Positions 4,189 through 28,416 of a stretch of DNA of 40,000 bases are shown here, one piece after another (within the stretch, counting starts at the first letter, position 1; each line of letters begins with the position of its first letter). Below the pieces are notes generated by a model. The model saw only the letters and a program-made list of their open reading frames with translations, had not been told where the DNA came from and searched no databases. Origin of the DNA: Candidatus Bathyarchaeia archaeon (GTDB taxonomy: Archaea > Thermoproteota > Bathyarchaeia > 40CM-2-53-6); the NCBI GenBank assembly GCA_049517415.1, contig JBEKSC010000008.1, positions 1 through 40,000 on the forward strand. The letters are read 5' to 3'. A program made the position numbers and the translations under genes.

Positions 4189-4522
4189 TTTTCTGATCGT
4201 GTCGTGACATTAAGTTCCCATAAAGGGATTCACCAGCGGTCCCCTCTGGCTCCTCACCCAACTCACCGATTTCCTCATTGGTCATCGCTGAAGTTGGCTT
4301 CAGAACAGTGACGATTGGCCCCCATCGTATGCCCCTTAGAGTCGGCAGTGTCTTTCCACATTCGAGACACTGCTCCAAGCCTTCGGGGTTAGCTGTCCCG
4401 CAGGAAGAACAATAGATAGGTTTCAGTATTGATCCGCAATCAATGCAATACCTGGCATCCAGTTTGTTTACCCTTTTGCAAGAGGGGCACCTTACGATTG
4501 TACCTGCCAATCTACCAACCAC
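4178..4522 (-). CDS. Double zinc-ribbon domain protein
   Basis: VRCPSCKRVNKLDARYCIDCG and IYCSSCGTANPEGLEQCLECG form two CxxC...CxxC ribbons, followed by an acidic tail. The 3' end overlaps gcvT by 11 nt (convergent). Confidence 0.6.
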   Translation of the reverse strand: MVGRLAGTIVRCPSCKRVNKLDARYCIDCGSILKPIYCSSCGTANPEGLEQCLECGKTLPTLRGIRWGPIVTVLKPTSAMTNEEIGELGEEPEGTAGESLYGNLMSRHDQKIKR

Positions 4523-4599
4523 GATTTATGGAGGTTCGCTACACATCCAGACAAGTCTTTCGTAGTTGAACTTTGGTTTCTCGGTCGGGATGATTTCGA

Positions 4600-8645: not shown

Positions 8646-8665
8646 TAATGGTCTCTATTCCACTA

Positions 8666-8833
8666 CTATTGCCCTGAATATTTCTCCTCATTTGATTGAC
8701 GGAGTCGAGCATATTTGTCGTGCGGAGAAAACTTTGGTGGATGGGGTGTAACTGTAGCCTCTCCGCACTTGGGGCAGTTCTGCTTCAACGTGTAGGTTTT
8801 GCAGTCAGGACATTTTCTTAGAAGCCATTTCAA
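8666..8833 (-). CDS. nop10: H/ACA RNP protein Nop10
   Basis: My own translation gives (TTG)KWLLRKCPDCKTYTLKQNCPKCGEATVTPHPPKFSPHDKYARLRQSNEEKYSGQ*. The CxxC...CPxCG...HPP+FSP.DKY pattern is the Nop10 signature. The start overlaps the eif2a stop (TTGA). The eif2a-nop10 order is conserved in archaea. Confidence 0.8.
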   Translation of the reverse strand: MKWLLRKCPDCKTYTLKQNCPKCGEATVTPHPPKFSPHDKYARLRQSNEEKYSGQ

Positions 8834-9612
8834 CTTAGTTTGCGCCCTTCGCCGCCTAGGCTCTTAATCGAGTTTAGTGCCTCGTCAATCGCCAAGTTCA
8901 ATGTCGCTTGGGCATCCGTTATCTCTTTGCTCCTAACTTCGAGCCTGTAACGTGGGGACCCTACTGTGTAAATCTTAATGGTTGTTCCGCGTGATTTCTT
9001 AACCTTCTTCGCTCCTCGGAGTGCTTGGCGTATCGCTTCCACTCCTTCTGTCTTGGCGCAAATTAGTTCGACAGTTCCGGTGACCTTCGCTTTTTCTAAC
9101 CTAATCTTGCTCCGCGCAACTTCAGTAAGTGTCTTGGCCCATTCTTCGCTAATGCCAAGTTTGCTAAAGATCTCTTCGCCCTCATCCGTGGCTTCTTCGA
9201 ATGCGTCGAATGGGTTGTCGAATTTTTCATAGATAATCGACTTGACCTTAGATACATCATCTTCGGTCGCCTTCAACTTCTCAGCTGCTCCTTTAATGAT
9301 CGAGTCAGCTTTCTTGACTTTCTTCCATTCGAGCATTTTTTCGGATTTTTCTCGTCCCGTGACCCTGCGGAGCGAGAGGTCGACTTGAGCCCGTTGGGAG
9401 CTAACACGCAGAACCTTCAGGACGAGCTTCTGGCCCTCTCTGACGTGAACCCTGATGTTTCTCACGTATGTGCTTGCGATTTCTGAGATATGGATTAGGC
9501 CTTCCACACCTTCGTATTCATCAAGTTTGACGTATGCCCCGTAATCCACGACCCGCGTTACAGAGGCTACTACAAGGTCGCCGACCTCTGGGTAACGTGG
9601 CGTTACAGACAT
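8830..9612 (-). CDS. eif2a: Translation initiation factor aIF2 alpha subunit
   Basis: The N-terminal S1 domain reads GDLVVASVTRVVDYGAYVKLDEYEGVEGLIHISEI. Length and gene context also fit. Confidence 0.9.
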   Translation of the reverse strand: MSVTPRYPEVGDLVVASVTRVVDYGAYVKLDEYEGVEGLIHISEIASTYVRNIRVHVREGQKLVLKVLRVSSQRAQVDLSLRRVTGREKSEKMLEWKKVKKADSIIKGAAEKLKATEDDVSKVKSIIYEKFDNPFDAFEEATDEGEEIFSKLGISEEWAKTLTEVARSKIRLEKAKVTGTVELICAKTEGVEAIRQALRGAKKVKKSRGTTIKIYTVGSPRYRLEVRSKEITDAQATLNLAIDEALNSIKSLGGEGRKLS

Positions 9613-9621
9613 TTGTTTGGC

Positions 9622-9822
9622 CTATCCGAGGACTTCCACGACTTCTGACTTAATTCTTGCTTTTCCGCCGGTCGGTTCAGCTAAAATTTCTTCGCACACT
9701 GAGCATCGCGGGGAGATTGATGGTCTGTCAAATATCACTTGCTCGTTACCGCATTTGGGGCATTTGATTCTAACGAAGCTGCTCTCTGGCTTTGGAATAA
9801 GTTCGCCCTTAACCATAATCAT
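9622..9822 (-). CDS. rps27e: Ribosomal protein S27e
   Basis: FVRIKCPKCGNEQVIFDRPSISPRCSVCEEILAEPTGGKA is the S27e zinc ribbon. Confidence 0.9.
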   Translation of the reverse strand: MIMVKGELIPKPESSFVRIKCPKCGNEQVIFDRPSISPRCSVCEEILAEPTGGKARIKSEVVEVLG

Positions 9823-9903
9823 TCACTGTTCTTGTGGAATCCGAAGAAAGTGGGTGCAACCAACATAAGTGTTATGGCTTGTTTTTCTGCACTCGAAGGT
9901 AAT

Positions 9904-10179
9904 TTAGGTGATTTCGAGTTTTCGAAGTCTAATTCCGAATCGGTAGACCTCAGAGCTGCAGGTTTTGCAGCTGAGCCTCAGCAATTGTTTCTTTGTTGTC
10001 TTTGCTGTACGTTTCAGTTCCGGGAACTTCTGTCCGCCGTATCCATGCTTTCTTCGTCTTTGCCTTCTTGCTCCGTCGGACATGGCCCGTTCCTTACTCT
10101 TCTTGTAGATTGATACCTGGTGATCAGTATGTGATTTGCATTTTGGACAGTATGTTCGGATCTGTTTGGGGACTTTCAT
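9904..10179 (-). CDS. rpl44e: Ribosomal protein L44e
   Basis: TYCPKCKSHTDHQVSIYKKSK...RRKHGYGGQ...LRLSCKTC matches L44e. Confidence 0.9.
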   Translation of the reverse strand: MKVPKQIRTYCPKCKSHTDHQVSIYKKSKERAMSDGARRQRRRKHGYGGQKFPELKRTAKTTKKQLLRLSCKTCSSEVYRFGIRLRKLEIT

Positions 10180-10221
10180 ACTGATCAGCCTGAGTTCGAT
10201 ACCTAGCCTTGCGTGCGCTAT

Positions 10222-10809
10222 TTATTGTTGATGGAGTTGTTCCGCCAATTCTTCAGGCAAAGTATGATGAACACGCTTAACATCAATTTCCTTAGCGAGG
10301 CCTTGTTTAATCAGTGCCTGGGCGTTTTGATTTGGAAGGGAACCCACGTCTTCTTTCTTGTACGGGCCGTATATTTTCAAGTCAACGCCAACAATTTCGG
10401 GAACATTATCAAGGAACCTTACGACTGAAAGATCCGCTTGATCTTCGGGAAGGGAGCCTCCCTGCTTAGCTTTGTCGTGTTCCTTGTAGTTTGAGAGAGA
10501 TTCATTGAAATGTTCCACGAGCCTTTTTTCTTCATCCGTTAAGTCATTCGTGCTAATTTCGGTGCCATCTCTTGCTGCGTTAACAATTTTGTGCAGCCTT
10601 GTTTGCTTAATTTCGTCGAGCAGGCGTTTTGCTACGTCCTTCTCGTCGACGAGTAGGCGGCCCTGGATTGTACGCGTGTCGCCAGCAACGGAGTCGTCTT
10701 CCAAGCCCTTTAGGTAGCCAGTGGCACGCTGGTAAAAGTCGCTCGATAGCGGCTGCGGTTTCTCGGAGGTTTTTTCCGCCTTCCAAGCCTTGTAGAGGTC
10801 GTTGTACAC
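10222..10809 (-). CDS. GINS subunit (Gins51/Gins15-type)
   Basis: MYNDLYKAWKAEKTSEKPQPLSSDFYQRATGYLKGL...IKQTRLHKIV is a typical archaeal GINS A-domain. The gene lies 2 nt downstream of priS, matching the known gins15-priS operon. Confidence 0.7.
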   Translation of the reverse strand: MYNDLYKAWKAEKTSEKPQPLSSDFYQRATGYLKGLEDDSVAGDTRTIQGRLLVDEKDVAKRLLDEIKQTRLHKIVNAARDGTEISTNDLTDEEKRLVEHFNESLSNYKEHDKAKQGGSLPEDQADLSVVRFLDNVPEIVGVDLKIYGPYKKEDVGSLPNQNAQALIKQGLAKEIDVKRVHHTLPEELAEQLHQQ

Positions 10810-10811
10810 GT

Positions 10812-12101
10812 CTATTTCACCGGGTCTGCGACGCCCTTGGCTATTAGTAGGATTGCGACGGCTAGCGGTAGTTCAATTTTCTCGTTGGTGAACGGCCCAT
10901 AATGTTGGTCGCGCAGCATGATTTCAGGTGCTTCGCCTACTTGAACGACCTGGGCCCCTTCAAAAACTGCCGGTTCATAGAAAGGATCGAATTCTTCGAG
11001 GCGCTCTAATTCGACTGATGTGGCTTTGAGGCCTGTCTTCCCGTTCAACGTTTCCGGCATCCGGATCAGTCTGTGTATGTCCGTGGTCACGACGGTATCG
11101 ATCTGTGCAGGTAGGGCGACGAGGCTCATTGCTTTATCAACGATGTTTCTCCAGACCTTCTCGTTTATGCGCCACTTGTCTTGGAAAGAACTCCAAAGCA
11201 TCTTTCTCGACCATTCCTTCTTGATTGTTTCACGGTCCTTCAGAATCTGCGCGGCAGCGCCCCGTGTAAATCCAAGTTCAACCAGCTGCTGTTGATTCAA
11301 TTCCGTTAAGATTTGGTACACTCCGCGAGCAAGCCTACCGCGCCAACCTGGCTCCGTCAGATCAGGCCCGACGACAACCGGGTGCCGATTGTCTAGAATG
11401 TCCTGGTAAAGTCCCTGCTCAGCTGGATCCAATCCGAGGGCGAGGACATAATCTACGATCTCTTTCCGCTGCAGGTCGTCTAGAGTTTTCAGTTTGTCGG
11501 AAATTATGTGGAGGTGGTATCCTCTGTGACCGGAAAAAAACAGGTGCATCTGATTAGATTCAATTCCGAAGTCTTCTGAGAGAAACTCAATTAGTTTTAG
11601 GACTTCCTCCTTCGCAGCTATAAGACACCGAACGCAAAGCCAAGGTTTCTCATCTATTTTCTCGTTTCCGCACTTGGGACATTTTGCAGGCTTCCTTCCT
11701 CTTCGCGTCTCCTTGCAATTGGTACACGCCCACATGTCATGTGTTTCTTTGCAGGGGGTATCGATGTGATCAGCGTCAACATCGAAAACAACATCTGAGC
11801 CCTTCCAGCCTTTTTGATCCATCTCAAGAGTGGGGTGTGCATAGTACGCTGTAGAATAGTAAACATCTGAAGGCGCCAGCGATAAGAGCGAATCAGTGAA
11901 GGTTTCGAGATTCTGGAAGGCCTTGTGTCTTACCATTATCTTCTGAGGGAAAAGCAGAAACCCGAATTCGCGTTCCGTCATTGCAGAAGGGGGTTTGAGG
12001 GACGGACTTGCCGCTTTATAGTACTCTTGAAATTTCTGTTTTAGGAATTCGAAGCGTTGGGTTTGGGTGTTGGGTGGCAGGTCGCTCTTCCTCATGTTCA
12101 T
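10812..12101 (-). CDS. priS: DNA primase small (catalytic) subunit PriS
   Basis: DVVFDVDADH is the catalytic DxD motif. The Zn knuckle reads CTNCKETRRGRKPAKCPKCG, and FSGHRGYHLHI is present. Confidence 0.9.
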   Translation of the reverse strand: MNMRKSDLPPNTQTQRFEFLKQKFQEYYKAASPSLKPPSAMTEREFGFLLFPQKIMVRHKAFQNLETFTDSLLSLAPSDVYYSTAYYAHPTLEMDQKGWKGSDVVFDVDADHIDTPCKETHDMWACTNCKETRRGRKPAKCPKCGNEKIDEKPWLCVRCLIAAKEEVLKLIEFLSEDFGIESNQMHLFFSGHRGYHLHIISDKLKTLDDLQRKEIVDYVLALGLDPAEQGLYQDILDNRHPVVVGPDLTEPGWRGRLARGVYQILTELNQQQLVELGFTRGAAAQILKDRETIKKEWSRKMLWSSFQDKWRINEKVWRNIVDKAMSLVALPAQIDTVVTTDIHRLIRMPETLNGKTGLKATSVELERLEEFDPFYEPAVFEGAQVVQVGEAPEIMLRDQHYGPFTNEKIELPLAVAILLIAKGVADPVK

Positions 12102-12211
12102 GTCAGAGTAACTTCAGGCATTTCATTATTGAGTACTCGGCGCGAATACATCCTTCCATGTGCACTCACTTCATAAACCTAGCCGAATATAGTCCCAAGC
12201 GGTCTTACAGG

Positions 12212-12526
12212 ATGAGAGAAGGGTGTGTCAAAGTCGGCCAAGCGGTCGAATTTCCTGTTAGTTCTTTGAAGAAGGTTGTATTTGGCGGCGAAGATGTTCT
12301 CGTTGCAAATGTTGGCGGAAAGCTCTATGCGATACCGAACACCTGCACGCACAGAGGAGGGCCGCTTGATGAAGGTGAGCTTGAAGGAAATATCGTCATT
12401 TGCCCATGGCATGGGGGCCAGTTTGATGTTACAACGGGGAAGGTGGTTGGGCCGCCACCCACGAAAGATGAAATTCTATTTGATGTTCGCGTCGAAGGCT
12501 CCGACGTAATGTTGAAGCGAAAATAA
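12212..12526 (+). CDS. Rieske [2Fe-2S] domain protein
   Basis: CTHRGGPL...CPWHGGQF is the Rieske motif. The start is placed at ATG 12212 (MREGCVKV). The longer ORF from 12008 overlaps priS. Confidence 0.8.
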   Translation: MREGCVKVGQAVEFPVSSLKKVVFGGEDVLVANVGGKLYAIPNTCTHRGGPLDEGELEGNIVICPWHGGQFDVTTGKVVGPPPTKDEILFDVRVEGSDVMLKRK

Positions 12527-12532
12527 CCTAGG

Positions 12533-14905
12533 TTAACTCATCCATTTCCTCGCAATAATCACGAATGACACGAGAATTGCTACTAGGACCACCATGGCGA
12601 CCACAAAAGTTTCTACGGGAAAGGTCAGGGCGTAAACAGCTGTTACGTTCCCTGGCATATTCATGACAACAGGGTCTGTCGCAACTCTACCATCCTCTCC
12701 CACCCAGTAAGTCAAAGTGTATTCTCCACCTAGGTAGCCTGATGTTCCCTCAGCAGGCACGCTCTCCGGGGCGCCAACTTTCACAGTTGCATTAGCATCG
12801 TACCACCCTCCTCCCACCGTAGGTCCGAAGCGCGAGTTTACGACGAGTAGATATTGAACCGTGTAATTCAGCATCTTCAGTGAATTCGCCGATACCGCAA
12901 AACCGCCATTCTCGATTTCGTACCGGGTGCCGGGTTCACCTTGAATCTGAGTATCCAATGAAACCGTGTGCGTTTCTCCTTTGAGGAAGTATAGGTCAAC
13001 CCAGGAACCGCCCGATGGCTCGAGATTATCCTTGCCGTCTACCTGAACGGGAACGTTGATTGAGCTTGGAATACCACTGGTTACCAGTGTCAACCGGAAG
13101 AACCCGGTAGCCGTGCGTGCATCTATTTTTCCGAAGCCCCAAACCGGGGAGCCGTCCGTAGACACGCCAGTGTCTGCGTCAAGTCGTGCGGTTTGTCTGA
13201 GTATTCCCGGGATATCGATTGCTTGTAAGCGTGAGTCGTACTGGAGCATTAGGGCAATTACGCCCGCTACGTGTGGAGTTGCCATGCTTGTTCCCGATAT
13301 GATTCTGTGGAACGCGTCAGGGTCACTTTCTTGTTCGTGGATTGCATTTGATCTGGCGGATGCTATGATGGTTCCTGGTGCCACGACATCCGGCTTGATC
13401 CTTCCGTCCCTCGTGGGGCCCCAAGAGCTGAATGATGCGATTCCCCCGGGCTCTATGTCAGTAGGGCCGTAGACTTGACCATTCATTCCCGTCCATGAAG
13501 TGTTCGTTACGTAAGCGCCCACCGTCACAACATCTCTCGCCGTACCCGGTATGCCCACCGTGTCGTGGCTGTCGATCTCGTATCCGTTCCCCGGAGTGAA
13601 GGAGGGGCCAGGATAGGCGCAGGTTACCGCATCCGTCCACGCGTCCCAAGAACCTTGAGACTGAATTTGATTTCCTTTCAGAGTTACGCTCCATCCATTA
13701 GCTGGCAGGTATTTAGTCGAGTTGACTTCAAGGTACAGTTCCTTACCGTTGTTCGAGGAACTTGTTGTGGTTGTTACGTTGCCGAAATTGCTTACAACTC
13801 CTCCAGGAATTGTTGGGACATGGTAAGTCTGCCCATCTGGTATTGTGAGCGTCGCGTCGATCTGATCCTGAGGTGAATACCAGACATCGATCTGTAGGTC
13901 AACTGTTGTTTGCCGAACCTGCAGCTGGAAAGTCACGTTACTTCCCTGTGAAAGTTTGCCTTGAATGTGGGCGTTGTCTCGTGCCTCATTTCCGGCGGCA
14001 ACGACGATCGGCGTTCCCGCCTCCACGATTGCGTCGAGGCCGAGTTCGAAGGGGTCAGTTCCATCGTGGGCCCCAATGTTTCCACCTAAGCTGAGGCTTA
14101 TCACGGCACGTTTTCCCAGCTTGGCCGCTTTTTTCACAATGTAACTCACGCCATCTAAAAGGTGAGTTGTATCGAAGTTCCAGCTAGTGCCGTTGCATAA
14201 GCTATACCCGCTCTTCACGAAGATTATGCTCGCCCCCGGAGCTACCCCTGTAAAGTTTCCAGTAGCCACCCCGGAACTTGCCGCTATTCCGGCTACGTGT
14301 GTTCCGTGGCCGTACGTATCGGTTTCAGGACAGTTCTTCGCTTGAATGTCAGCTGACGTGCACTCGTAGCCGTAGTCGAAACCAATGGGTGGGCGCCCGG
14401 GAGTTGTTTGGTCCCAGACGTAGAGAATTTTGGTGGTTCCATTGGGGAAGGTGAAATCAGGGTGCGTCGTATCAATTCCAGTATCGACGAACCCAATGAT
14501 TACTCCTGCACCAGTTATATTGTTGCCATTAGGATCCTTTACTTGATTCCATACTTGCGGCGCTCCGGTATCGGGTACGCCGCTCTCAAGGTCAATGCTG
14601 AGGGAATGTGAATTCTCAATTCGGGTGACAAATGGCAAATCCGCAATCTCGGGGAGGCTGGTTACTAGGGTGTGGAGTACAGCGATGGGGCCTGCGGTCG
14701 ACGTGACTGTGCCGTATGTATTCAGCAACTGAACCTCGCTAGGGACAAAATCGTGGTCACTCTCAACGAAGATCGAGATTTGGACAGTGGGATTCTGTAA
14801 TCCACGAATAACAAGAGTAGCGTGAGCTGTTTGAGTAGGAGGTACTGAACTGGAGAGAATCGTTAAGATTGCGAGTATGCACAGAGCTACGGATCCTTTC
14901 TTCAA
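12533..14905 (-). CDS. Secreted, membrane-anchored subtilisin-like serine protease (peptidase S8)
   Basis: It has a signal peptide (MKKGSVALCILAILTILSS). The catalytic residues lie in VGFVDTGID, GHGTHVAG and SGTSMATPHVAG. The C-terminal TM anchor reads FVVAMVVLVAILVSFVIIARK. Confidence 0.9.
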   Translation of the reverse strand: MKKGSVALCILAILTILSSSVPPTQTAHATLVIRGLQNPTVQISIFVESDHDFVPSEVQLLNTYGTVTSTAGPIAVLHTLVTSLPEIADLPFVTRIENSHSLSIDLESGVPDTGAPQVWNQVKDPNGNNITGAGVIIGFVDTGIDTTHPDFTFPNGTTKILYVWDQTTPGRPPIGFDYGYECTSADIQAKNCPETDTYGHGTHVAGIAASSGVATGNFTGVAPGASIIFVKSGYSLCNGTSWNFDTTHLLDGVSYIVKKAAKLGKRAVISLSLGGNIGAHDGTDPFELGLDAIVEAGTPIVVAAGNEARDNAHIQGKLSQGSNVTFQLQVRQTTVDLQIDVWYSPQDQIDATLTIPDGQTYHVPTIPGGVVSNFGNVTTTTSSSNNGKELYLEVNSTKYLPANGWSVTLKGNQIQSQGSWDAWTDAVTCAYPGPSFTPGNGYEIDSHDTVGIPGTARDVVTVGAYVTNTSWTGMNGQVYGPTDIEPGGIASFSSWGPTRDGRIKPDVVAPGTIIASARSNAIHEQESDPDAFHRIISGTSMATPHVAGVIALMLQYDSRLQAIDIPGILRQTARLDADTGVSTDGSPVWGFGKIDARTATGFFRLTLVTSGIPSSINVPVQVDGKDNLEPSGGSWVDLYFLKGETHTVSLDTQIQGEPGTRYEIENGGFAVSANSLKMLNYTVQYLLVVNSRFGPTVGGGWYDANATVKVGAPESVPAEGTSGYLGGEYTLTYWVGEDGRVATDPVVMNMPGNVTAVYALTFPVETFVVAMVVLVAILVSFVIIARKWMS

Positions 14906-17222: not shown

Positions 17223-17642
17223 TTTGTTCGCCTTTTTGATTGGCCTTAAGGTCCTTTAGGGGCTCTAGGGGTTGTTAATTTGGGTTACTTATCCGCCCGC
17301 CCTTAGCCTAGGGTTTAGGGTTGCGAAAACTAACCAAACCGTGCTAGCTGCCTGGAGCGGGAGCATCTAAGTATTGGCGGAGTTGGGGAGGTTCAACGTG
17401 TAAACCTTTTCGTAATTGGAGACTGCAGTTGCAAAGAGGCCTTACAATACGCTGCATTATCGTAATCATGCTCTAGGTAGCATGGTCTTCTTCTTCGACT
17501 TTCACGAACACGATTGGCCAGTAAAATGCCTCGTAAAGTATGAATCCTAATTTCCGGCTCTCACGCCTGATCTTTGGTGACGCGGATGGGTACGAATCGC
17601 TACCTCCAGAAAAGCCCACTACTTTTTCCAGCAAATAACTCG

Positions 17643-17757
17643 ACTATTAGAGCCTTTCAGGTCACGGTTCAATTTGCGTTGCCCGCACCAGTAGACTCTC
17701 ACACACGTTTTTCAACGACGAACGATCATGTTCGGAATCGGTGGGTGTTATCGCTCC
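17643..17757 (+). repeat. Island repeat, copy A
   Basis: The copy contains ACGGTTCAATTTGCG, then CGCACCAGTAGACTCTCACACAC, then GTTTTTCAACGACGAACGA. It is colinear with copies B, C and D. Confidence 0.7.
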
Positions 17758-17782
17758 TTTCTTATCGCATCGTGAAGCGAAT

Positions 17783-18727
17783 CTACTTAGCACGTTTTGG
17801 CATCCAGAATAGGTAGTACATGAGGTAGAATGCCGCGATTCCGCTGAAAGGAGAGAATTTGCTTAGAAGTCGTCGAACTTCATTTGAGCCAATTCGCTTG
17901 CCTTTGAAATACGCTTGTGAGATTGCGCGTTGAATTCCTAGGTCGTCAGCAGGCAATGAATTCACCCTTCCCATGCCCCGAATCAACGTATATTCCGCAG
18001 TCCAAGGACCAACGCCCCTAATCTTGGTTAGCTCTGCAATCGCCGTCTCATCATCCATCCTCCTTAGACCTTCAAGGTCTAACTCCTTGCCTTCAACTTT
18101 CTTGGAAAGTTCACTTATGTACAATGCCTTATTCCTACTGAGCCCAACAGCCATCATTTGGTTCAGCTTTGCTTTCGCTAAAACCGCGGGAGTTGGAAAG
18201 GCATAGAAGCTTCTTCCCTCGAACTCCACACTCTCTCCATACTTCTCAATCAGGCGAGAGCGTACCGCTGCTGCAGCCTCGAGTGAAATCTGCTGCTCGG
18301 TAATGGCGATTACCAAGGCTTCAAAAATAGTCGGCGGTGAAACAGCTCTCAGCCCTCTGAGCTTCCATGAAACAATACTCATCAATCGGTCTTTCTTAAC
18401 AAACGAATAGAACTTGTCAAAATCAAACGAAGCTGCAAACATCGTATGCAGTAGTCTCTTCAATGCTTTAACTTCCTGAGCCAACAAACCTGGGTGAGCT
18501 TCCACGCTAAGACGTGGTTTTTCGATGGTTCCCTTGGATGTAACTAGGACAAGGACTGGATTCTCAGCAAGGTGAAGAACTCTTTTGTAAACACCGTTTT
18601 CATATACGTCTGGAAGGCTTTTCTCAAACCGACAGTGAATCCCCGCGCTTCTTTCAAAGTCGAATGGGGATTCGGGAAAAATGAAGAAACCTGTTTTGGA
18701 ACCAGTGATTCTGAGGGTCTTATCCAT
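17783..18727 (-). CDS. HhH-GPD superfamily DNA glycosylase (AlkA/Ogg-like)
   Basis: LTKIRGVGPWTAEYTLIRGMGRVNSLPADDLGIQRAI contains the HhH-GPD motif with the catalytic Asp. ALVIAITEQQISL is also present, and the N-terminal domain is AlkA_N-like. Confidence 0.8.
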   Translation of the reverse strand: MDKTLRITGSKTGFFIFPESPFDFERSAGIHCRFEKSLPDVYENGVYKRVLHLAENPVLVLVTSKGTIEKPRLSVEAHPGLLAQEVKALKRLLHTMFAASFDFDKFYSFVKKDRLMSIVSWKLRGLRAVSPPTIFEALVIAITEQQISLEAAAAVRSRLIEKYGESVEFEGRSFYAFPTPAVLAKAKLNQMMAVGLSRNKALYISELSKKVEGKELDLEGLRRMDDETAIAELTKIRGVGPWTAEYTLIRGMGRVNSLPADDLGIQRAISQAYFKGKRIGSNEVRRLLSKFSPFSGIAAFYLMYYLFWMPKRAK

Positions 18728-18779
18728 GAGTTGCTCGTAGCACGCTGAGAGAGTTACATGTTAAGTATTTGTGGATCTT

Positions 18780-18897
18780 GGCCACTTTAGTCGCACACAC
18801 TTCCTAGCGATTACGGTTCAAATTTGCCTGCTCGCACCAGCTGACCCACACACACTTTCTATGACGAACGACGACGGCGGCCTTTTGGGGTCTTTCC
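18780..18897 (+). repeat. Island repeat, copy B
   Basis: The copy contains GCACACACTTCCTAGCGA, TTACGGTTCAAATTTGCCTGCTC, CGCACCAGCTGACCCACACACAC and TTTCTATGACGAACGACGACGG. That is two tandem sub-units with a period of about 55 nt. Confidence 0.7.
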
Positions 18898-19872
18898 GAG
18901 GATCTTACAAAGTTCGACGAAACTGCTTATGGCCAATGGAATACCCACTCCGAGGTAAAGCGAAGAGAAGAATATAGATTGGTCACGTTGTGTAACTAAA
19001 TTCGTAATCTGAAAATCAACTAACACAAAACTACCAGAGGCGTAAAGTGGGCTCGCTCTACTAATATCCCACTGGTACCACAGATTTCCTCCAGAGGCGA
19101 AAATGTTGTCTTCAGTCGGCGATGATTCAATTATGGCACCAGCAGGTTGCGCCACGTCCAGAACGTAACTCTCGCTGTCAAATTGGTTGAGAGGAGTTAC
19201 AGGACCAGGTACTATGTTCTAGATTGCAGGGCCGTAGTCGAACCGGTTGGTCAACTCGTATGTGGAGTAGGAATTCCGCAAGAGTGGCGTTTTAATGATA
19301 ATTGTCGCATTGAACCAAAAGAAATCATAAGACGTGTTATGATTTATCATACGATTTGCGCGAACCCAGAAATATGATAAGCCTGTTGCTTTGTCGAATC
19401 CCGGAGAGTAAGTAAAGTTAGGATTAGGATATCTGCTACTCATGCTTGTACCGAAAGAGCTCATTGGAGTCAGCGTCTTTTGCATGCTGAAAGATACATC
19501 CCAATCCAGTATTGTCGCAGAAGAATTGTATGGAATCTCAGCTCCGAACACTATCTGGCTCGAGTTGAACTGCGTTTTGAAGGAGCACGATATGGAAAGA
19601 ACTGCAGCGTTGAGATCTGGCCTTATCCCGTAGACCATAACTGCAACTCTTGTTGAGGTGATTCCGTAATTCCCGGCCAGAGTTGGATAATGTGAGGCGA
19701 AAATAGCTAACCCGTAAGATGAGGATGCAGGCGCATTACTAGGGAAGTTGAAAACGTTCTGTAGGCCCGTGGATCCACAGAAAGCAAGTACGATACCACT
19801 AAAGAGAAAAATGAGCAGGAGATAAGGCACTCTCCGGTTGACGACTCTTCCGAAGCTATCTATGCTAACCAT
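18859..19872 (-). pseudogene. Surface/membrane protein gene interrupted by one in-frame TAG (19219-19221)
   Basis: ORFs 19219..19872 and 18859..19155 are in the same frame. Read-through gives ...DYGPAI*NIVPGPVTPLNQFDSESYVLDVAQPAGA... The product has an N-terminal signal anchor (LLLIFLFSGIVLAFC) and a C-terminal TM plus basic tail (KGRRRRSS). No domain was recognised. Confidence 0.5.
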
Positions 19873-20029
19873 CTAACCGAGACCCTGTTATTAGACCTGA
19901 ATAGTCCCTATAGCCACTAATGAATCGACCAGTGTCAATAACGTACGATTTAGGCTTACACGCCTACAATCATCCCCCAGCAGGAACTGCAATCGCCAAG
20001 CTAATTCAGCATGAACCGGGGGGGAATCT

Positions 20030-20130
20030 CAGCGTACACATGGAAACCCTTACGTGGACTTGTGGGTCTAGTGGTGCGCGCGCACACACTTTCCAACGAC
20101 AAACGACGACGGGTCGAATTTTGCTGCTCT
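20030..20130 (+). repeat. Island repeat, copy C (core-1 segment inverted)
   Basis: TGTGGGTCTAGTGGTGCGC is the reverse complement of core-1 in copies A, B and D. It is followed in direct orientation by GCGCACACACTTTCCAACGACAAACGACGACGGGTCGAATTTTGCTGCTC. Confidence 0.7.
20061..20087. repeat. Left inverted repeat bracketing the cas1 module
   Basis: TGTGGGTCTAGTGGTGCGCGCGCACAC matches the reverse complement of 22868-22894 at 24 of 27 positions without gaps. Confidence 0.7.
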
Positions 20131-20181
20131 TACCGAAGTTTTTTATGGATTCATTACGCACCTTTAGCTGGGTTTGATGTA

Positions 20182-20448
20182 ATGAACATGAAGTTGATGG
20201 TTCTTGTTTCTGTTGTTGCTGGTTTGGTGATTACGCTGATCACCGGGTTGGTTGATGTGACGCCTATGCACCTGGTGGGTGCAACTTGGCATGGTTGGCC
20301 GCTCCCTTGGTTCTATGTAATTGTCTACCCAGGCTCACCGATCTCGGTTAATTGGCTCAACTTAATCGGTGATATCATCGTCTGGTTTGTCATAGTCCTC
20401 GCAGTTGCCTTAGTGATTTCGAAATTCAAGAAGACGTCCAAAACTTAG
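20182..20448 (+). CDS. Small membrane protein, at least two predicted TM segments (88 aa)
   Basis: The protein reads MNMKLMVLVSVVAGLVITLITGL...WHGWPLPWFYVIV...IIVWFVIVLAVALVISKFKK. The start is placed at ATG 20182 because the upstream part of the ORF crosses repeat C. Confidence 0.5.
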   Translation: MNMKLMVLVSVVAGLVITLITGLVDVTPMHLVGATWHGWPLPWFYVIVYPGSPISVNWLNLIGDIIVWFVIVLAVALVISKFKKTSKT

Positions 20449-20549
20449 GATGCATTCGAGGTAACGATCGGAATCCGCTGAGCCCATGGCACAATTCGTC
20501 CCGAGAAGGGTGAGGCTCAGAGAGGGGGGCAGGGGATTCTGACCCCAAT

Positions 20550-20741
20550 TTAGCGGTACACATAGCCTTGCAGTGAAGCAACGGAACAATGCGAGTTCAA
20601 ATTCCGATGCTCGTACCAGAAGGCGGCCCCTCCATCTGAGGTCAGGTCGCCCACTAAAGCCACAACATCCGGTCGAATTCTATCTACCCGTTCTTCGTAT
20701 CCTTCCCATTTCACAACATCAGAGAAGGCAAGTATCTTCAT
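20550..20741 (-). CDS. Short ORF resembling the N-terminus of a metallophosphoesterase (probable remnant)
   Basis: MKILAFSDVVKWEGYEERVDRIRPDVVALVGDLTSDG resembles the MKILxxSDxH...PDxVxxxGDL motifs but lacks the His and ends after 63 aa. ATG 20741 lies 6 nt downstream of the cas1 stop codon (20750-20752). The TTG 20759 version overlaps cas1. Confidence 0.35.
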   Translation of the reverse strand: MKILAFSDVVKWEGYEERVDRIRPDVVALVGDLTSDGGAAFWYEHRNLNSHCSVASLQGYVYR

Positions 20742-20749
20742 CGAGCCCA

Positions 20750-21964
20750 CTAGGTCCAACCGCCAAGCTTCGTCATGACGGGTTTGTAGATGGTGAATTG
20801 GTCTTTACAGGCGTTCTTGCGCAAATATTGAAGGGTGCTCTTTCCAATCCCAAGGCGTCTTGCCTTGGAGCCGGTCAGTGCAAGAATCCTAGCTCGCACT
20901 TCTCGGTCATCACTCCTCTGCAGCCTCGGAGCGGGTTCTGCAAAATCAAGCGTGAGTGATTTCTCGAGTAGAAATCGGCCCAGCTCGTTGGTCTTCTGCT
21001 CAATAACAGTATCCCATTTCAGAACTCGGTGTTTGCATGCTACGCCAGCGTTGAATCGCTCACGAATGAGATCGATGAAGCGCTGCTTCGCTTCAACCTC
21101 GAAACGGTATCGGTAATCGTCCCCTGTGAAGTAGAAGTCGGATAGGTTCAAGGCTTCAGACTGGAATGCCGCGATGACCGAAATGTCAGATAGCCACCTG
21201 AACGGCTCCTGTAAATCATACACTAAAGACTGCTTTGTCTGATAGTCGCTGACATCATGAAAGAAACCGACCGAGGGTTCCAGGCCGACCGCGTTTATTG
21301 CTCGTCGACATTCACCCTCTAGGAAACCATAACCGTAGTTTAGGGCCAAGTTCACGGGATCTGAGGCGTTGTTCTGGTGGCTTGAAGTCATTCGCTCTTG
21401 GAAATCCAAGTGCTCGGGCATCACTTTCCCGAATGCTTCCCAGTATCTCCTAGCTACACGTCCTTCGACAGTTCGTAGGTCTGGCACTGTGGAGGCTCTT
21501 CTGAGCTTTGATGCCTCAAGCTTCGTTACTTGAATCTCCCTAGGAATATCATACCGCTCGGCCAACCAATCAAGAACTTGCAGACTCCTCTCAATTTTCG
21601 CTTGAACGAGCGCTCTGGCTATGCTGAACTTCTTCTTCGGATCGTTCGCAGCTAGAATTTGTGCAGCCCGCAGATCGGCCTTAACAGGCATTGGAGGCAG
21701 AACACTAGAAATCAGACTTCCATCGAAGTTCATGATGAAGACAGGAACCTTATGCTTCGACAGCCAGTGAAACGCTTGGAGAGAAATGTACCCACTGTGC
21801 CCATCGATGATGATGGTGCCGTAAGGGAAACGTCGCGGACGAAAACGGTGCGTAGATTCTGCTCTGTCATCTTCTCGCCAGTTGATGACCTCAAGTTCAG
21901 ATCTTGACTTGAGACTGTTAACGCGGATCTTGGCGCCCCAACCGGATAGATGAAGCGGATTCAA
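20750..21964 (-). CDS. cas1: Cas1 family integrase, stand-alone, casposase-like with a C-terminal HTH
   Basis: The Cas1 motifs are RTVEGRVARRYWEAF (Glu), ASDPVNLALNYGYGFL, VGFFHDV (His) and SLVYDLQEPFRW (Asp/Glu). The C-terminal HTH reads ARRLGIGKSTLQYLRKNA. Length is 404 aa. Confidence 0.85.
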   Translation of the reverse strand: MNPLHLSGWGAKIRVNSLKSRSELEVINWREDDRAESTHRFRPRRFPYGTIIIDGHSGYISLQAFHWLSKHKVPVFIMNFDGSLISSVLPPMPVKADLRAAQILAANDPKKKFSIARALVQAKIERSLQVLDWLAERYDIPREIQVTKLEASKLRRASTVPDLRTVEGRVARRYWEAFGKVMPEHLDFQERMTSSHQNNASDPVNLALNYGYGFLEGECRRAINAVGLEPSVGFFHDVSDYQTKQSLVYDLQEPFRWLSDISVIAAFQSEALNLSDFYFTGDDYRYRFEVEAKQRFIDLIRERFNAGVACKHRVLKWDTVIEQKTNELGRFLLEKSLTLDFAEPAPRLQRSDDREVRARILALTGSKARRLGIGKSTLQYLRKNACKDQFTIYKPVMTKLGGWT

Positions 21965-21966
21965 AC

Positions 21967-22413
21967 CTAATGCCCTCCCTGTCTACTTTCATATTCCTTG
22001 AGCTTCTGGTCGGCCAACTTGCCTGCTTCCTTCAATCGTTGTATCTCTCTTTCAGTAGGCCTTGATCTCGTCTTTGTGTTTGCACGGGCCACTATTGATT
22101 GCCAGCGTTCGTTGAGATATCCTACAGCGAAGCTTTCGCCTACAGGACTTGTAAGGAATTCAACGAATTTATCGGGATCGACTGCGAATGCCAACACTAT
22201 TAATCCGTAGTTGCTGAAGCAAGATTTCCAACCTTTTTTCAACTGTTCAGCATCGAGCCAGTTCCTTTTCGCTGAGAACATACTCTCAGCGAGGAAAGCC
22301 GTATACCGGGTTGAGGACCAGTGGGTCAATGCATACTTTAGGTACAGCGACCTTTCGTTAACCATTGTCAATCTAGAGTACGGTCTCATTGCAGTTGACT
22401 CAGGAGTCCTCAT
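21967..22413 (-). CDS. Hypothetical protein (148 aa) immediately upstream of cas1
   Basis: The ORF ends 2 nt before the cas1 start, which is an operon-like arrangement. I recognised no motif. It is not Cas2-like or Cas4-like. Alternative starts lie at M9 and M17. Confidence 0.5.
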   Translation of the reverse strand: MRTPESTAMRPYSRLTMVNERSLYLKYALTHWSSTRYTAFLAESMFSAKRNWLDAEQLKKGWKSCFSNYGLIVLAFAVDPDKFVEFLTSPVGESFAVGYLNERWQSIVARANTKTRSRPTEREIQRLKEAGKLADQKLKEYESRQGGH

Positions 22414-22744
22414 GCTATCACATGGCGATCCAATATCTTCGATGCTGAATAGCGCGTTCTTGCATCGAGTAATGAACTATCTCGCTGACTGGTCACCGTT
22501 CAAAACAAACAGTTATCCAAACGATGGTCTGAAACTGTACTCCGAGACAGGGAAAATGCTTAACGCCATTTTTGTGAGAGTTGCGGATGGCAAGACCTGG
22601 CACATTGCCTTTCATCTCAAGCCGGAAACGTCAACCGACGCGATCAAACCTGACATGGTCAAGCTACTCTCAATGCTAGCATCTTTAGGTTTGGTGAAGA
22701 ACCCTGTTGTGAGAGAACGAGTGGGTAAGAAACCTTGGATATGA
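22412..22744 (+). CDS. Hypothetical protein (110 aa)
   Basis: The first ATG of the ORF gives MLSHGDPISSMLNSAFLHRVMNYLADW... The composition is protein-like. The longer TTG 22211 version overlaps the 148-aa gene. No motif was recognised. Confidence 0.45.
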   Translation: MLSHGDPISSMLNSAFLHRVMNYLADWSPFKTNSYPNDGLKLYSETGKMLNAIFVRVADGKTWHIAFHLKPETSTDAIKPDMVKLLSMLASLGLVKNPVVRERVGKKPWI

Positions 22745-22844
22745 TATTAGTGATAGACAGACTGAACAAGTGTGAGAGACCGTTCTCCGAACGAGAATGA
22801 ACCATCTCCAATTTTCTCCTCGACACACAAAGCGACGCTGCCAG

Positions 22845-22950
22845 AATTAGATTCGGTCGTCCGTCTAGTGTGTGTGCGCACCATTAGACCCACACCCTTT
22901 CTAACGACGCTGGTCCAAATTACGACTCTCGCAAGCACTAGGTCCACAAT
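22845..22950 (+). repeat. Island repeat, copy D (imperfect palindrome plus direct unit)
   Basis: The sequence reads AATTAGATTCGGTCGTCCCGTCTAGTGTGTGTGCGC | GCGCACCATTAGACCCACACCCTTTCTAACGACGCTGGTCCAAATT. The left arm is an inverted partial unit. A second core-1-like GCAAGCACTAGGTCCACA lies 55 nt further on. Confidence 0.7.
22868..22894. repeat. Right inverted repeat bracketing the cas1 module
   Basis: The reverse complement is TGTGGGTCTAATGGTGCGCACACACAC. It matches 20061-20087 at 24 of 27 positions. Confidence 0.7.
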
Positions 22951-23168
22951 GAAGGAAAACGCGATAGTTGGACAGTTGAAATCACAGATAACGCAAATGG
23001 CGACTGCCAACTCTACAGGAGGCTGATTGGAATAATTTGATTGGATTGACGAAGAGTCTTACTTCTTCGCCGATTGCTTAGCGTAGGCCGCCAAACCACC
23101 ATCCGACACGCCATAATACTTAACCATTTGACTAAGCTTTTGCCATAAAGCTTTGCCAATTCAAAGCG

Positions 23169-25806: not shown

Positions 25807-28416
25807 ATGTCGAAAACACTTGAAAGCTACTTTACGGAAAAGCGCGAGGAGATCAAACTGGCCCCGAGGCCTCTGGTCAAGCGGCAGAGCCTAGTCTTCT
25901 ATCCGGCAATGCCAGCGTCAATCCCTCCATCATACTTGGTCTCCATAGGGTATGACGGGGATCTCAAGAAATGTTTTCTGCGTCTCTACGAACCTAAGTC
26001 GCATAAAATCTATTTTTGGTTTGACGACTCGGGTCACAAACCCTACTGTTACAGCAAGCAGTCGGTCGGGGAGCTTCAGAGAGTGGAGGCGGTAGCGAGG
26101 AACCCTGGGTTCGACCATTTCGAGGAGGAAACGAAGTTTGACGCGCTTCGGAGTGAGCAAGTTAAAGTGACGAAGATCGTCGCCAAAGACCCACTGACAA
26201 TCGGTGGAAAACCTACCGGTTCAATGCGCGACGCCATAACCGCATGGGAAGCTGACATAAAGTACGTCGAGAATTTCATCTATGACCGCGGGCTCGAACC
26301 TGGCATGATGTACGAGTTTAAAGACAAACAGTTGGCCGCGGTGAAATACGAACTACCGGAAGAAGCAGCGATGGAAATTGACAGTCTCTTCCGGGATGAA
26401 TCTCAAGAGTACCAAGGCCTAGCAAGAGAATGGATGCGGCTCCTTGAGTGCCCCGTACCAGAGTACAGGAGGGCGGCCGTAGACATTGAAGTTTTTCAGG
26501 CCGTAGAGTCACGTATTCCCGATCCAGAATTATCGGAACATCCAGTAATTTGTGCAAGCCTAGTCGGATCCGATGGTGCCAAACGCGTACTCCTCTTACG
26601 ACGAGAAGGGACTCCTGAGGGTCAGGCTTCGTTACCAACTGGCGTCGAATCGGAATTCTATGACACCGAGGAAGAATTGTTAATCGCTCTATTCCAAGCT
26701 TTCCTGGATTATCCGATAGTAGTCACATTCAACGGTGACGATTTTGACCTGAAATACCTCTACCACCGCGCTCAAAGGTTGGGTTTTAGAAATGAAGAAA
26801 TTCCAATCGAGTTAGGCCGCGATGTCGCCTTTCTCAAGTATGGTGTCCATGTAGACCTCTACAAGTTCTTCTTCAACAGGTCTATCCAAATTTACGCGTT
26901 CGGCCAGAAGTACCGGGAGAACACGCTGGACGCTGTCGGCGCGGCGCTAATCGGCACTCCAAAGGTCGAAATAGAATCAGTCTCGAAAGCATCCTACAGG
27001 CAATTGGCCGCCTACTGCTATCGTGACTCCGAAATTGTCCTCAACCTGACTTCTTTCAACGAAGATTTGGTCATGAAGTTGATGACGGCGATATCACGAA
27101 TCAGCTACATGACGCTGGACGATGTCTCAAGACAGGGAGTGTCGGGTTGGATTCGAAGCATACTGTTCTGTCACCACCGCAAACGAGGATACTTGATTCC
27201 TAGGAGAGACGAGATTCTGGAGGTCAAAGGCCAAACTGCTACGGAAGCTGTGATTAAGGGCAAGAAGTACAAGGGCGCAATAGTTGTTGAACCTAAACCA
27301 GGCGTCCATTTCAACGTCGCAGTCCTCGACTTTGCATCACTGTACCCTTCTATCATCAAGGTCTGGAACCTCGGCTACGAGACAGTTCGCTGTCCACACG
27401 TGGACGAGGCTTGCAGGAAGAACCTAATCCCAGGAACGCCCCACTGGGTCTGCAAAAAGAAGCGGGGACTTGAAAGCCTGCTGATTGGTTCGCTTAGGGA
27501 CCTGCGAGTTGGCAGGTACAAGGTCAAGTCGAAAGACCGTTCCTTACCACCGAACATGAAGAGTTGGTACAAAGTCGTATCCGATGCGCTGAAGGTGGTA
27601 CTAAATGCCTCCTACGGTGTCTTCGGTGCGGATAATTTTGCGTTGTATTGTCCGCCTGTCGCCGAGGCCACTGCCGCAATAGGCAGGCACGTTATAACTC
27701 AAGCATTGCAGAAAGCGCAGGAACTTAATTTGGAAGTCTTCTACGGTGACACGGATTCCATATTTCTTCAAGGCCAGGATAAAGTCTCGCTTAACAAGCT
27801 CATCGAATGGTCTACCAGCCAGCTCAGGATGGAGTTGGAAATCGACAAGAACTATCGTTACCTTGCCCTTAGTTCAAGGAAGAAGAACTACTTCGGCGTC
27901 CTGCCCGATGGAAGCGTAGACATCAAGGGATTGACAGGGAAAAAGCGGCATATTCCAGAGTTCTTGCACGGCGCCTTTTACGAAATGGTTTCGGCCCTGG
28001 CCGAAGTCAAATCGCCGGAAGACATCGACATTGCGAAAGCGAAAACAATTGATATCGTGAAACGCAGTTACGTGAGACTGCGGAACAGGGAATACACGCT
28101 CCAGGAACTAGCCTTTTCAATGATGATGAGCAGAACCCCGGAAAATTACACAAAAACGACCCCGCAGCACGTGAAAGCGGCCAAGCAATTACAAGAAGCC
28201 GGCGCAGAAATGAAACCAGGCGATATTATATCCTTTGTCAAGGTACGGGGCGAGCCCGGAGTTAAGCCTGTGCAACTTGCTAGGCTAGAAGACGTAGACA
28301 CTGAGAAATACATCGAATATATCCGGGGCACATTCGAGCAGGTACTTGACGCTTTAGGAGTCGAATTCGAAGATTTGGCTGGCGTAAAGAAACTGGAATC
28401 CTTCTTCAATGGGTAA
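25807..28416 (+). CDS. polB: Family B DNA polymerase (cellular replicative type)
   Basis: Exonuclease motifs are AAVDIEV and FNGDDFDLKYL. Polymerase motifs are DFASLYPSII, KVVLNASYGVFG and YGDTDS. Length is 869 aa and I saw no intein. Confidence 0.9.
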   Translation: MSKTLESYFTEKREEIKLAPRPLVKRQSLVFYPAMPASIPPSYLVSIGYDGDLKKCFLRLYEPKSHKIYFWFDDSGHKPYCYSKQSVGELQRVEAVARNPGFDHFEEETKFDALRSEQVKVTKIVAKDPLTIGGKPTGSMRDAITAWEADIKYVENFIYDRGLEPGMMYEFKDKQLAAVKYELPEEAAMEIDSLFRDESQEYQGLAREWMRLLECPVPEYRRAAVDIEVFQAVESRIPDPELSEHPVICASLVGSDGAKRVLLLRREGTPEGQASLPTGVESEFYDTEEELLIALFQAFLDYPIVVTFNGDDFDLKYLYHRAQRLGFRNEEIPIELGRDVAFLKYGVHVDLYKFFFNRSIQIYAFGQKYRENTLDAVGAALIGTPKVEIESVSKASYRQLAAYCYRDSEIVLNLTSFNEDLVMKLMTAISRISYMTLDDVSRQGVSGWIRSILFCHHRKRGYLIPRRDEILEVKGQTATEAVIKGKKYKGAIVVEPKPGVHFNVAVLDFASLYPSIIKVWNLGYETVRCPHVDEACRKNLIPGTPHWVCKKKRGLESLLIGSLRDLRVGRYKVKSKDRSLPPNMKSWYKVVSDALKVVLNASYGVFGADNFALYCPPVAEATAAIGRHVITQALQKAQELNLEVFYGDTDSIFLQGQDKVSLNKLIEWSTSQLRMELEIDKNYRYLALSSRKKNYFGVLPDGSVDIKGLTGKKRHIPEFLHGAFYEMVSALAEVKSPEDIDIAKAKTIDIVKRSYVRLRNREYTLQELAFSMMMSRTPENYTKTTPQHVKAAKQLQEAGAEMKPGDIISFVKVRGEPGVKPVQLARLEDVDTEKYIEYIRGTFEQVLDALGVEFEDLAGVKKLESFFNG

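Follow-up and report, generated by a model that had tools for sequence, protein, structure and literature searches.

A casposase gene of a probable polymerase-less casposon lineage in Bathyarchaeia

The casposase gene and its protein

We analysed a 40-kb stretch of DNA from a Bathyarchaeia genome (the window, by which we mean the whole stretch at its full length) and concentrated on a gene at positions 20750-21964 of the minus strand, which encodes a casposase, that is, a Cas1-family integrase, of 404 amino acids. The gene starts with TTG and is intact, with 404 open codons and no internal stop, and its assignment draws on profile, PDB, alignment and fold evidence. The protein was recognised by the Cas1 profiles of Pfam (Cas_Cas1, PF01867; 1.2e-51), TIGRFAMs (TIGR00287; 1.6e-47) and PADLOC (Cas1; 7.8e-55). 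When PDB sequences were searched using phmmer, the top match was the casposase of Methanosarcina mazei (6OPM), with an E-value of 4.8e-69 over residues 37-403 and a protein identity of ~33%, and the C-terminal tail of 6OPM was included in the alignment, up to residue 403. The best CRISPR Cas1 by sequence, that of A. fulgidus (4N06), reached an E-value of only 4.5e-21. A Foldseek search of the PDB again placed 6OPM first (6.7e-24), with CRISPR Cas1 proteins at ~1e-15 (best 6.9e-16). By both sequence and fold, therefore, the protein is nearer to casposases than to CRISPR Cas1 proteins.

The structure predicted by AlphaFold2 (mean pLDDT 76, pTM 0.70) contained an N-terminal beta domain, a helical catalytic domain and four short C-terminal helices, at residues 354-362, 365-370, 375-385 and 394-401. 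When 22 family members with 52-78% identity to the query were aligned, E167 (in VEGR), H236 (in GFxH) and E253 (in LQEPFR) proved invariant in every member, and these residues aligned with E162, H232 and E247 of 6OPM, which form the active site of that enzyme (PMC6977970). Deletion of the helix-turn-helix (HTH) tail abolishes integration by the casposase of M. mazei (PMC6977970), and the presence of a tail in the window protein is relevant for this reason. The initial annotation, made from the sequence without database searches, had described this Cas1 as catalytically intact and as ending in an HTH of the casposase type. Both descriptions held: the triad was neither misaligned nor substituted, and the stretch of predicted helices (354-401) falls within the region to which the 6OPM tail aligns. 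With its predicted Cas1 fold and catalytic Glu/His/Glu, the protein has what characterises a casposase, and its predicted C-terminal HTH is a feature of family 2 casposases, in which this domain has 60-70 residues. The lineage appears closest to those family 2 casposases that carry a C-terminal HTH (Methanosarcina/Aciduliprofundum type). Ratios of nonsynonymous to synonymous substitution (dN/dS) among full-length copies were 0.05-0.16, with dS saturated, even between both full-length copies of this genome, and indicate that full-length copies are under strong purifying selection.

The genome is a 2.65-Mb metagenome-assembled genome (MAG) in 59 contigs, with a completeness of 100% and a contamination of 6.9%. 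Genes for Cas2, Cas4, RAMP, DevR/Cas7 and Cas3-HD proteins were not found across the whole genome, while the control genomes gave responses. There were no tandem repeats in the window, and a genome-wide k-mer scan for regularly spaced repeats gave no CRISPR-like array, a negative that carries the caveat that CRISPR arrays often fail to assemble and that this MAG is in 59 contigs. The candidates which the scan did return were rejected as coding repeats. Within the limits of the MAG, the genome thus has neither the cas2 gene nor the array that a CRISPR adaptation module comprises. The absence of Cas2, Cas4 and an array within 40 kb, reported in the initial annotation, extends to the entire genome. 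Nor did the genome scan find a CRISPR-cas locus lacking its own cas1, so that, within the same limits, no such locus elsewhere speaks against an integrase function outside CRISPR adaptation. That function had been proposed for this orphan Cas1, and sequence, fold, triad, HTH tail and the lack of genomic CRISPR-Cas all agree with it. An early impression that the window holds no repeat array was right as to CRISPR and missed dispersed sites of ~60-120 nt, which are repeats of a non-CRISPR kind.

The variable island and its repeat sites

A profile derived from the composite repeat of the window gave 75 matches in the genome, which represent ~53 sites falling in ~12 islands, often at contig ends. 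The dispersed sites, each ~60-120 nt long, look like casposase target and end sequences. The first part of the repeat unit is a leader-like stretch that is spaced exactly as a tRNA 3' end is (GGTTCAAAT, then five variable and seven further bases and ACCA) and has an unpaired T-stem, and the second part is a 14-nt box with the consensus CGCACCAnTAGACC. These are followed by a CA-repeat run and an ACGACG-rich arm that runs into the next GGTTCAAAT. In palindromic sites, a GT run and a CA run flank the box, and an arm lies on each side. That the repeats are tRNA genes or known RNAs was rejected, as ARAGORN and Rfam were negative and the T-stems unpaired; Rfam gave no match in the window. The tRNA genes of this genome encode the 3' CCA and many appear to contain introns; ARAGORN found 30, with the intron option only. 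Between consecutive sites lie mostly single, tightly packed genes of very diverse function, among them genes for a DNA glycosylase, nitrilase, pirin, Asp/Glu racemase, luciferase-like oxidoreductase, DEAD-box helicase, Schlafen/AlbA and HEPN-like proteins, AAA ATPase, radical SAM enzyme, transporters and a glycosyltransferase.

The casposase gene lies in one such island, 5.9 kb of variable DNA (17226-23113) that is absent from the closest relative and joins two blocks which are adjacent in none of five relatives. Its sites are all given on the plus strand. Site A (17663-17738) consists of a leader-like stretch, a 14-nt box (17684-17697) and a CA-run arm, and site B (18782-18877) of an arm with a leader-like stretch, a 14-nt box (18833-18846) and a CA-run arm. 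In site C (20065-20134), the 14-nt box is reversed (20065-20078) and is followed by a CA-run arm (20079-20134). Site D (20593-20633), 124 nt past the stop codon of the casposase gene, has a leader (20593-20611), followed by a box altered at one position (CGTACCAGAAGGCG, 20612-20625) and then by a C-rich start (20626-20633). This order of leader, box and C-rich terminal inverted repeat (TIR) is also that of three complete elements described below (L008, L021 and L012), and site D is the probable surviving end of the casposase element. No complementary end was found on the far side of the gene; the site there, site E (22842-22929), is a palindromic junction of the CA-run type, with an inverted-repeat arm that has a GT run at its end (22842-22876), the canonical box (CGCACCATTAGACC, 22877-22890) and a second arm with a CA run at its start (22891-22929). 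As copies of the composite repeat, sites C, D and E were delimited at 20061-20134, 20584-20619 and 22842-22934. Sites C and E bracket the casposase gene with a 27-nt inverted repeat (20061-20087 and 22868-22894), and since their boxes are inverted and not direct, they do not represent a target duplication.

Two single-gene cassettes occupy the left part of the island: an HhH-GPD DNA glycosylase between sites A and B (17783-18727, minus strand) and a 217-aa protein without a family match between sites B and C (19219-19872, minus strand). A small, hydrophobic, predicted membrane protein of 88 aa, counted from an internal ATG, is encoded between sites C and D (20182-20448, plus strand). Upstream of the casposase gene, a 177-aa open reading frame (ORF; 22211-22744, plus strand) resembles the C-terminal part of a 541-aa AAA ATPase of a cassette on contig C3 (32% identity over 144 aa) and is likely a cargo remnant; an overlapping 148-aa ORF (21967-22413, minus strand) lacks homologues and is perhaps spurious. 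No gene for a family B DNA polymerase (PolB) was found inside the island. A conserved stretch of ~45 nt (20517-20564) upstream of the leader of site D occurs in dozens of copies in relatives, with 83-95% identity, and its copy at L008:15675-15715 adjoins the leader of that locus's casposase element; the stretch may serve as an extended target or as a promoter. An anticodon-arm-like stretch upstream of site D was also considered, and was rejected because it gave no alignment to real tRNAs.

The neighbourhood of the island in the window consists of archaeal housekeeping genes (PriS, PriL, GINS, PCNA, TFS, eIF2-alpha, AglB, agmatinase, an RsmB-like methyltransferase, PolB and CofE). A gene for a 790-aa subtilase-family (S8) protease (12533-14905, minus strand) lies between PriS/GINS and PriL/PCNA. 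The flanks of the island are 92-98% identical at the nucleotide level to the closest relative (G014), in which the match to the window breaks off after 17225 and resumes at 23114. The two sides match at two unrelated places, as they do in four other relatives, which marks 17226-23113 as variable DNA at a synteny break. On the TFS side, G014 continues after 48 nt with DNA that is found here on contig C2 just before another island; on the agmatinase side, 4.9 kb of unrelated DNA is followed by a stretch that in this genome sits on C47 immediately ahead of an island. Either islands have truly rearranged with one another at this break, or the contig was put together through repeats. In every case examined (17226, 23113, C2:160998, C47:8250 and C3:151909), an island edge was also a synteny break relative to G014, indicating either that islands mediate rearrangements or that MAG contigs were joined via repeats.

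Complete elements and distribution of the family

This genome and 18 related loci were searched, in an unbiased scan, for 13-mer direct repeats lying 0.3-20 kb apart with inverted inner flanks. The scan gave seven distinct pairs, six of them of the CGCACCA type and five enclosing a casposase gene. The casposase-bearing elements (5-11 kb) are each flanked by identical 14-15-nt direct repeats reading CGCACCA..., with TIRs inside, and a tRNA-3'-end-like stretch lies beside the target-site duplication (TSD). Those in L008 (8498-15641, 7.1 kb; TIR of ~48 nt with a CCG run at its start) and L021 (6901-17865, 11 kb; TIR with a CCG run) contain full-length casposase genes, and that in L012 (about 7441-12587, 5.2 kb; TIR with a C run) a truncated one. 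The remaining two are on contig C3 of this genome, the first (135146-143140, 8 kb; TIR of ~50 nt with a CA run) with a truncated and the second (143155-151769, 8.6 kb; TIR with a short CA run) with a full-length casposase gene. The C3 elements adjoin, with one box common to both and a leader-like stretch just past the last box. TIR sequences are thus of several types (CA-run, CCG-run and C-run), and among the cargo are a zinc-ribbon, a TIR-domain and a TPR protein as well as an AAA ATPase and DUF4365. None of the five elements contains a PolB gene, as judged from ORF sizes and from scanning L008, L021 and the first C3 element with Pfam; the four PolB genes of this genome are on C7, C8, C9 and C46, and none is on C3.

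The C3 elements are part of a 23.6-kb island (C3:128103-151908; loci L027 and L043) directly after a tRNA-Ser(GGA) gene (128103-128241). At the end of this island, a partial copy of the tRNA-Ser 3' end with a 15-nt identical core (~151870-151895) precedes conserved flanking DNA. The island ends look like the attL and attR of a larger integrated element, with the two tandem casposase elements nested inside. On contig C39 (locus L033), two identical 96-nt units, each with a box, an arm and a second box (272-356 and 4439-4523), lie 4.2 kb apart; the interval contains a gene for a DEAD-box helicase, an ORF of 131 aa and a partial site, and no casposase gene, and the pair may be a recently duplicated or mobilised casposase-free unit.

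In this genome the casposase gene is present at five places. Two copies are full-length, that of the window and one on C3 with 72% identity to it; C3, C9 and C37 each have a C-terminal fragment. Across the genus, it was detected in 11 of 18 genomes, at 0-13 copies each, many of them truncated or interrupted by stops, and two near-complete genomes (3-5 contigs) do not have it. The protein database contains >120 distinct 90%-identity clusters at 67-79% identity and 930 matches at E <= 1e-10; these homologues are ~400-415 aa long and are named only 'Cas1'. Relatives recovered by a back-translated pattern search were all Candidatus Bathyarchaeia MAGs from peat and soil. The casposase therefore behaves as a mobile gene: patchy, multi-copy and often truncated.

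DNA similarity between copies begins at the start codon and ends within the gene before the stop, and conserved DNA beyond the coding sequence was rejected because similarity is confined to the casposase gene. A conserved operon partner was likewise rejected, as none emerged from an all-against-all comparison of ORFs in 5 kb around 23 copies. Fragments across genomes retain the C-terminal part far more often than the N-terminal, with starts spread over residues 105-292. Truncation at a box or TIR was seen only in the C3 fragment; the other junctions are heterogeneous. On C9 (17645-19538, locus L037), a fragment of a casposase gene, truncated (17645-18199), precedes a 351-aa frame that weakly matches tyrosine recombinases (PF00589, E 6.9e-5), and a leader-plus-box site lies at 21025-21049.

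Each of the 18 genomes of the genus contained between 1 and 40 instances of the leader-plus-box pattern. In the other families of the order, there were 0-5 occurrences per genome, mostly real tRNAs, with the exception of one genome with 16 such sites, in which casposase fragments were also present. Across genomes, site counts correlated weakly with the presence of the casposase gene.

Transposition without a polymerase, and alternative readings

Taken with the variability of the island and the absence of CRISPR-Cas, the catalytic protein and the PolB-less elements bounded by TIRs and TSDs make it likely, in our judgement, that the gene is the casposase of a large Bathyarchaeia lineage of casposon type that has no PolB, the window copy being intact and its element rearranged. 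The chemistry, target recognition and activity of the window copy can be pictured by analogy with the M. mazei enzyme. A casposase tetramer would bind the ~30-bp tRNA-3'-end-like stretch together with a 14-bp box starting with CGCA, the 3'-OH ends of the TIR-bounded element would be joined to the two strands at points 14 bp apart, and gap repair would duplicate the box. As there is no PolB in the elements, movement would consist of excision and integration by the casposase only, with copying left to the host. A mini-casposon excises precisely and reintegrates in M. mazei in vivo (PMC10359463), which makes mobility without a polymerase in cis plausible. Because the arms carry a leader-like copy, insertions would recreate targets, and tandem or nested arrays would then form variable islands. 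In the window element, the end opposite site D has, on this reading, been replaced by an arm of another subtype (site E); the window copy is probably immobile in cis and could act in trans on the many sites of the genome.

Casposons of M. mazei have a 14-bp TSD whose invariant first four bases, CGCA, overlap the last four of a tRNA-Leu gene; the target used in vitro is this 14-bp TSD with 30 bp of the tRNA, tandem casposons share one duplication, and casposon-free strains keep solo TIRs (PMC6977970, PMC4779613). With these and other family 2 casposons (MetMaz, PDB 6OPM; Aciduliprofundum boonei AciBoo-C1), the Bathyarchaeia elements have in common a Cas1-fold integrase with an E/H/E triad and C-terminal HTH, a 14-bp duplication starting with CGCA at a tRNA-3'-end-like sequence, the same geometry of box and leader, TIRs, tandem elements sharing one duplication, and solo end remnants in integrase-free genomes; genomes of the genus that bear sites and no casposase resemble the M. 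mazei strains with solo TIRs. Unlike family 2 casposons, they contain no PolB, HNH nuclease or other conserved partner, so that only the casposase is shared among them. Their target is a mimic of a tRNA end with an unpaired T-stem, not a functional tRNA gene, and the mimic is built into the element arms; TIRs are of several types, the host is Bathyarchaeia, and identity to 6OPM is ~33%. The stand-alone, CRISPR-free cas1 also recalls Cas1-solo group 1 of Methanomicrobiales. That group lacks the full catalytic set and signs of horizontal transfer (PMC4046053), whereas the present gene has an invariant triad, is patchy and multi-copy and resides in Bathyarchaeia, and it does not belong there.

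Several observations weigh against the transposon reading. The window copy starts with TTG where homologues have ATG at the same position. No pair of 14-15-bp TSDs flanking it was found, the flanking boxes being inverted, and comparison with G014 gave no clean empty site with a single box at either end of the window island or at the right end of the C3 island. Both flanks of the window island are at synteny breaks and are possibly contig chimeras. Seven of the 18 genomes of the genus have sites and no detected casposase gene, which makes the link between enzyme and sites circumstantial. Finally, at many cassette boundaries leader, box and arm follow each other in direct, not inverted, order, for which simple TIR transposition offers no explanation; such units and the single-gene cassettes are not fully accounted for.

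These direct-order units lend some support to an alternative, which we regard as unlikely, in which the casposase is the integrase of an integron-like or proto-CRISPR-like system that inserts single-gene cassettes into leader-plus-box sites. The accessory-gene arrays would then be a gene-capture platform, maybe of benefit to the host, and not transposon debris. Consistent with this, the ~53 sites in ~12 islands tightly bound single genes of diverse accessory or defence type, sites in loci oriented by cas1 are mostly downstream and on one strand, and the box is duplicated per insertion in the fashion of a CRISPR repeat. However, the complete units that are clearest contain several genes within TIRs and TSDs, the casposase gene among them, and the only casposase-free pair with identical boxes is the 96-nt duplication on C39. 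Casposase copies decay freely, the gene is missing from the seven genomes which retain sites, and there is no sign of cassette expression from a common promoter. The sites resemble those of integrons and clusters of attC sites lacking integron integrases (CALINs), including archaeal ones (bioRxiv 10.1101/2022.02.06.479319), in that single, diverse accessory genes alternate with imperfect palindromes, 60-120 nt long, that have ...AAC / GTT... at the ends of their arms. They differ in their arm cores, which are TTTGAAC / GTTCAAA and not the RYYYAAC...GTTRRRY of attC, and in the 14-nt CGCA core between GT and CA runs, and the TIRs and 14-bp duplications of complete units are a hallmark of transposition rather than attC x attI recombination. 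No IntI-type tyrosine recombinase was found beside the arrays, where PF00589 matches were non-adjacent apart from the weak one near the C9 fragment; neither the attC cores nor an array-adjacent IntI, by which integrons and CALINs are recognised, were seen. There is an outside chance that casposase, 14-bp CGCA box and tRNA-end-mimic leader form a working gene-capture array, the box being duplicated and the leader recreated with each unit. Kilobase-long 'spacers' with accessory and defence genes would then accumulate beside Cas1, in what would amount to a present-day version of the casposon-to-CRISPR intermediate that has been proposed and to an integron counterpart built on Cas1.

It is very unlikely that the casposase has been domesticated and, no longer mobile, works for the host, for instance in repair or in regulation close to the replication genes. 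The intact ORF, its purifying selection, its location between PriL-PCNA-TFS and agmatinase-RsmB-PolB and the lack of an intact element around it would suit such a role, but the position is kept in none of five relatives, the closest of which lacks the entire island, the gene occurs patchily, in multiple copies and often as a pseudogene, and its paralogues reside in TIR/TSD elements.

Even less credible is a Cas1 of CRISPR adaptation whose cas2, array and effectors lie in unassembled parts of the MAG. Databases do label the family 'CRISPR-associated protein Cas1', and in an assembly of 59 contigs arrays often go unassembled. Against this, no cas gene was found in a genome of estimated 100% completeness, the protein, with its casposase HTH tail, is far nearer to the casposase than to any CRISPR Cas1, and none of 18 related loci has a conserved cas neighbour. 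Fold and catalytic residues are those of Cas1-Cas2 adaptation, in which integration likewise duplicates a short repeat beside a leader-like sequence; the present system differs in having no Cas2, array or effectors, in its additional HTH domain and in the inserted DNA, which is kilobases long and bears genes.

A canonical self-synthesizing casposon that includes the PolB gene at 25807-28416 can be dismissed almost entirely, for although a family B polymerase lies within 4 kb of the casposase and the polymerases of family 2 casposons are similar to cellular PolBs, the right end of the island is at 23113, and agmatinase, RsmB and the start of PolB are syntenic in G014 (92% identity), G018, G016 and G011 with no casposase there, so that the nearby PolB is a host gene.

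Casposons are considered rare, and our literature search found no description of polymerase-less casposons, nor of casposons in Bathyarchaeia. They have been defined as self-synthesizing transposons with an 'invariable' DNA polymerase (PMC6452270), and a thaumarchaeal survey reported PolB in every casposon (PMC6563490). The casposase lineage studied here numbers hundreds of distinct variants in Bathyarchaeia of soil and peat. The enzyme described here is a casposase, and the elements depart from the casposon as defined in having no polymerase; from their sequences, we read them as a new polymerase-less variant of casposons. The occurrence of casposon end and target signatures without a polymerase separates Cas1-mediated integration from self-replication and supports excision and integration by the casposase only, as with the laboratory mini-casposon. 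The name 'CRISPR-associated Cas1', under which genes of the family are currently annotated, is misleading, and the sites flag variable islands of accessory genes in uncultured Bathyarchaeia and can aid their annotation. The elements also provide a natural case in which a short Cas1 target is repeatedly duplicated beside a leader-like sequence, a step that has been proposed for the birth of CRISPR arrays.

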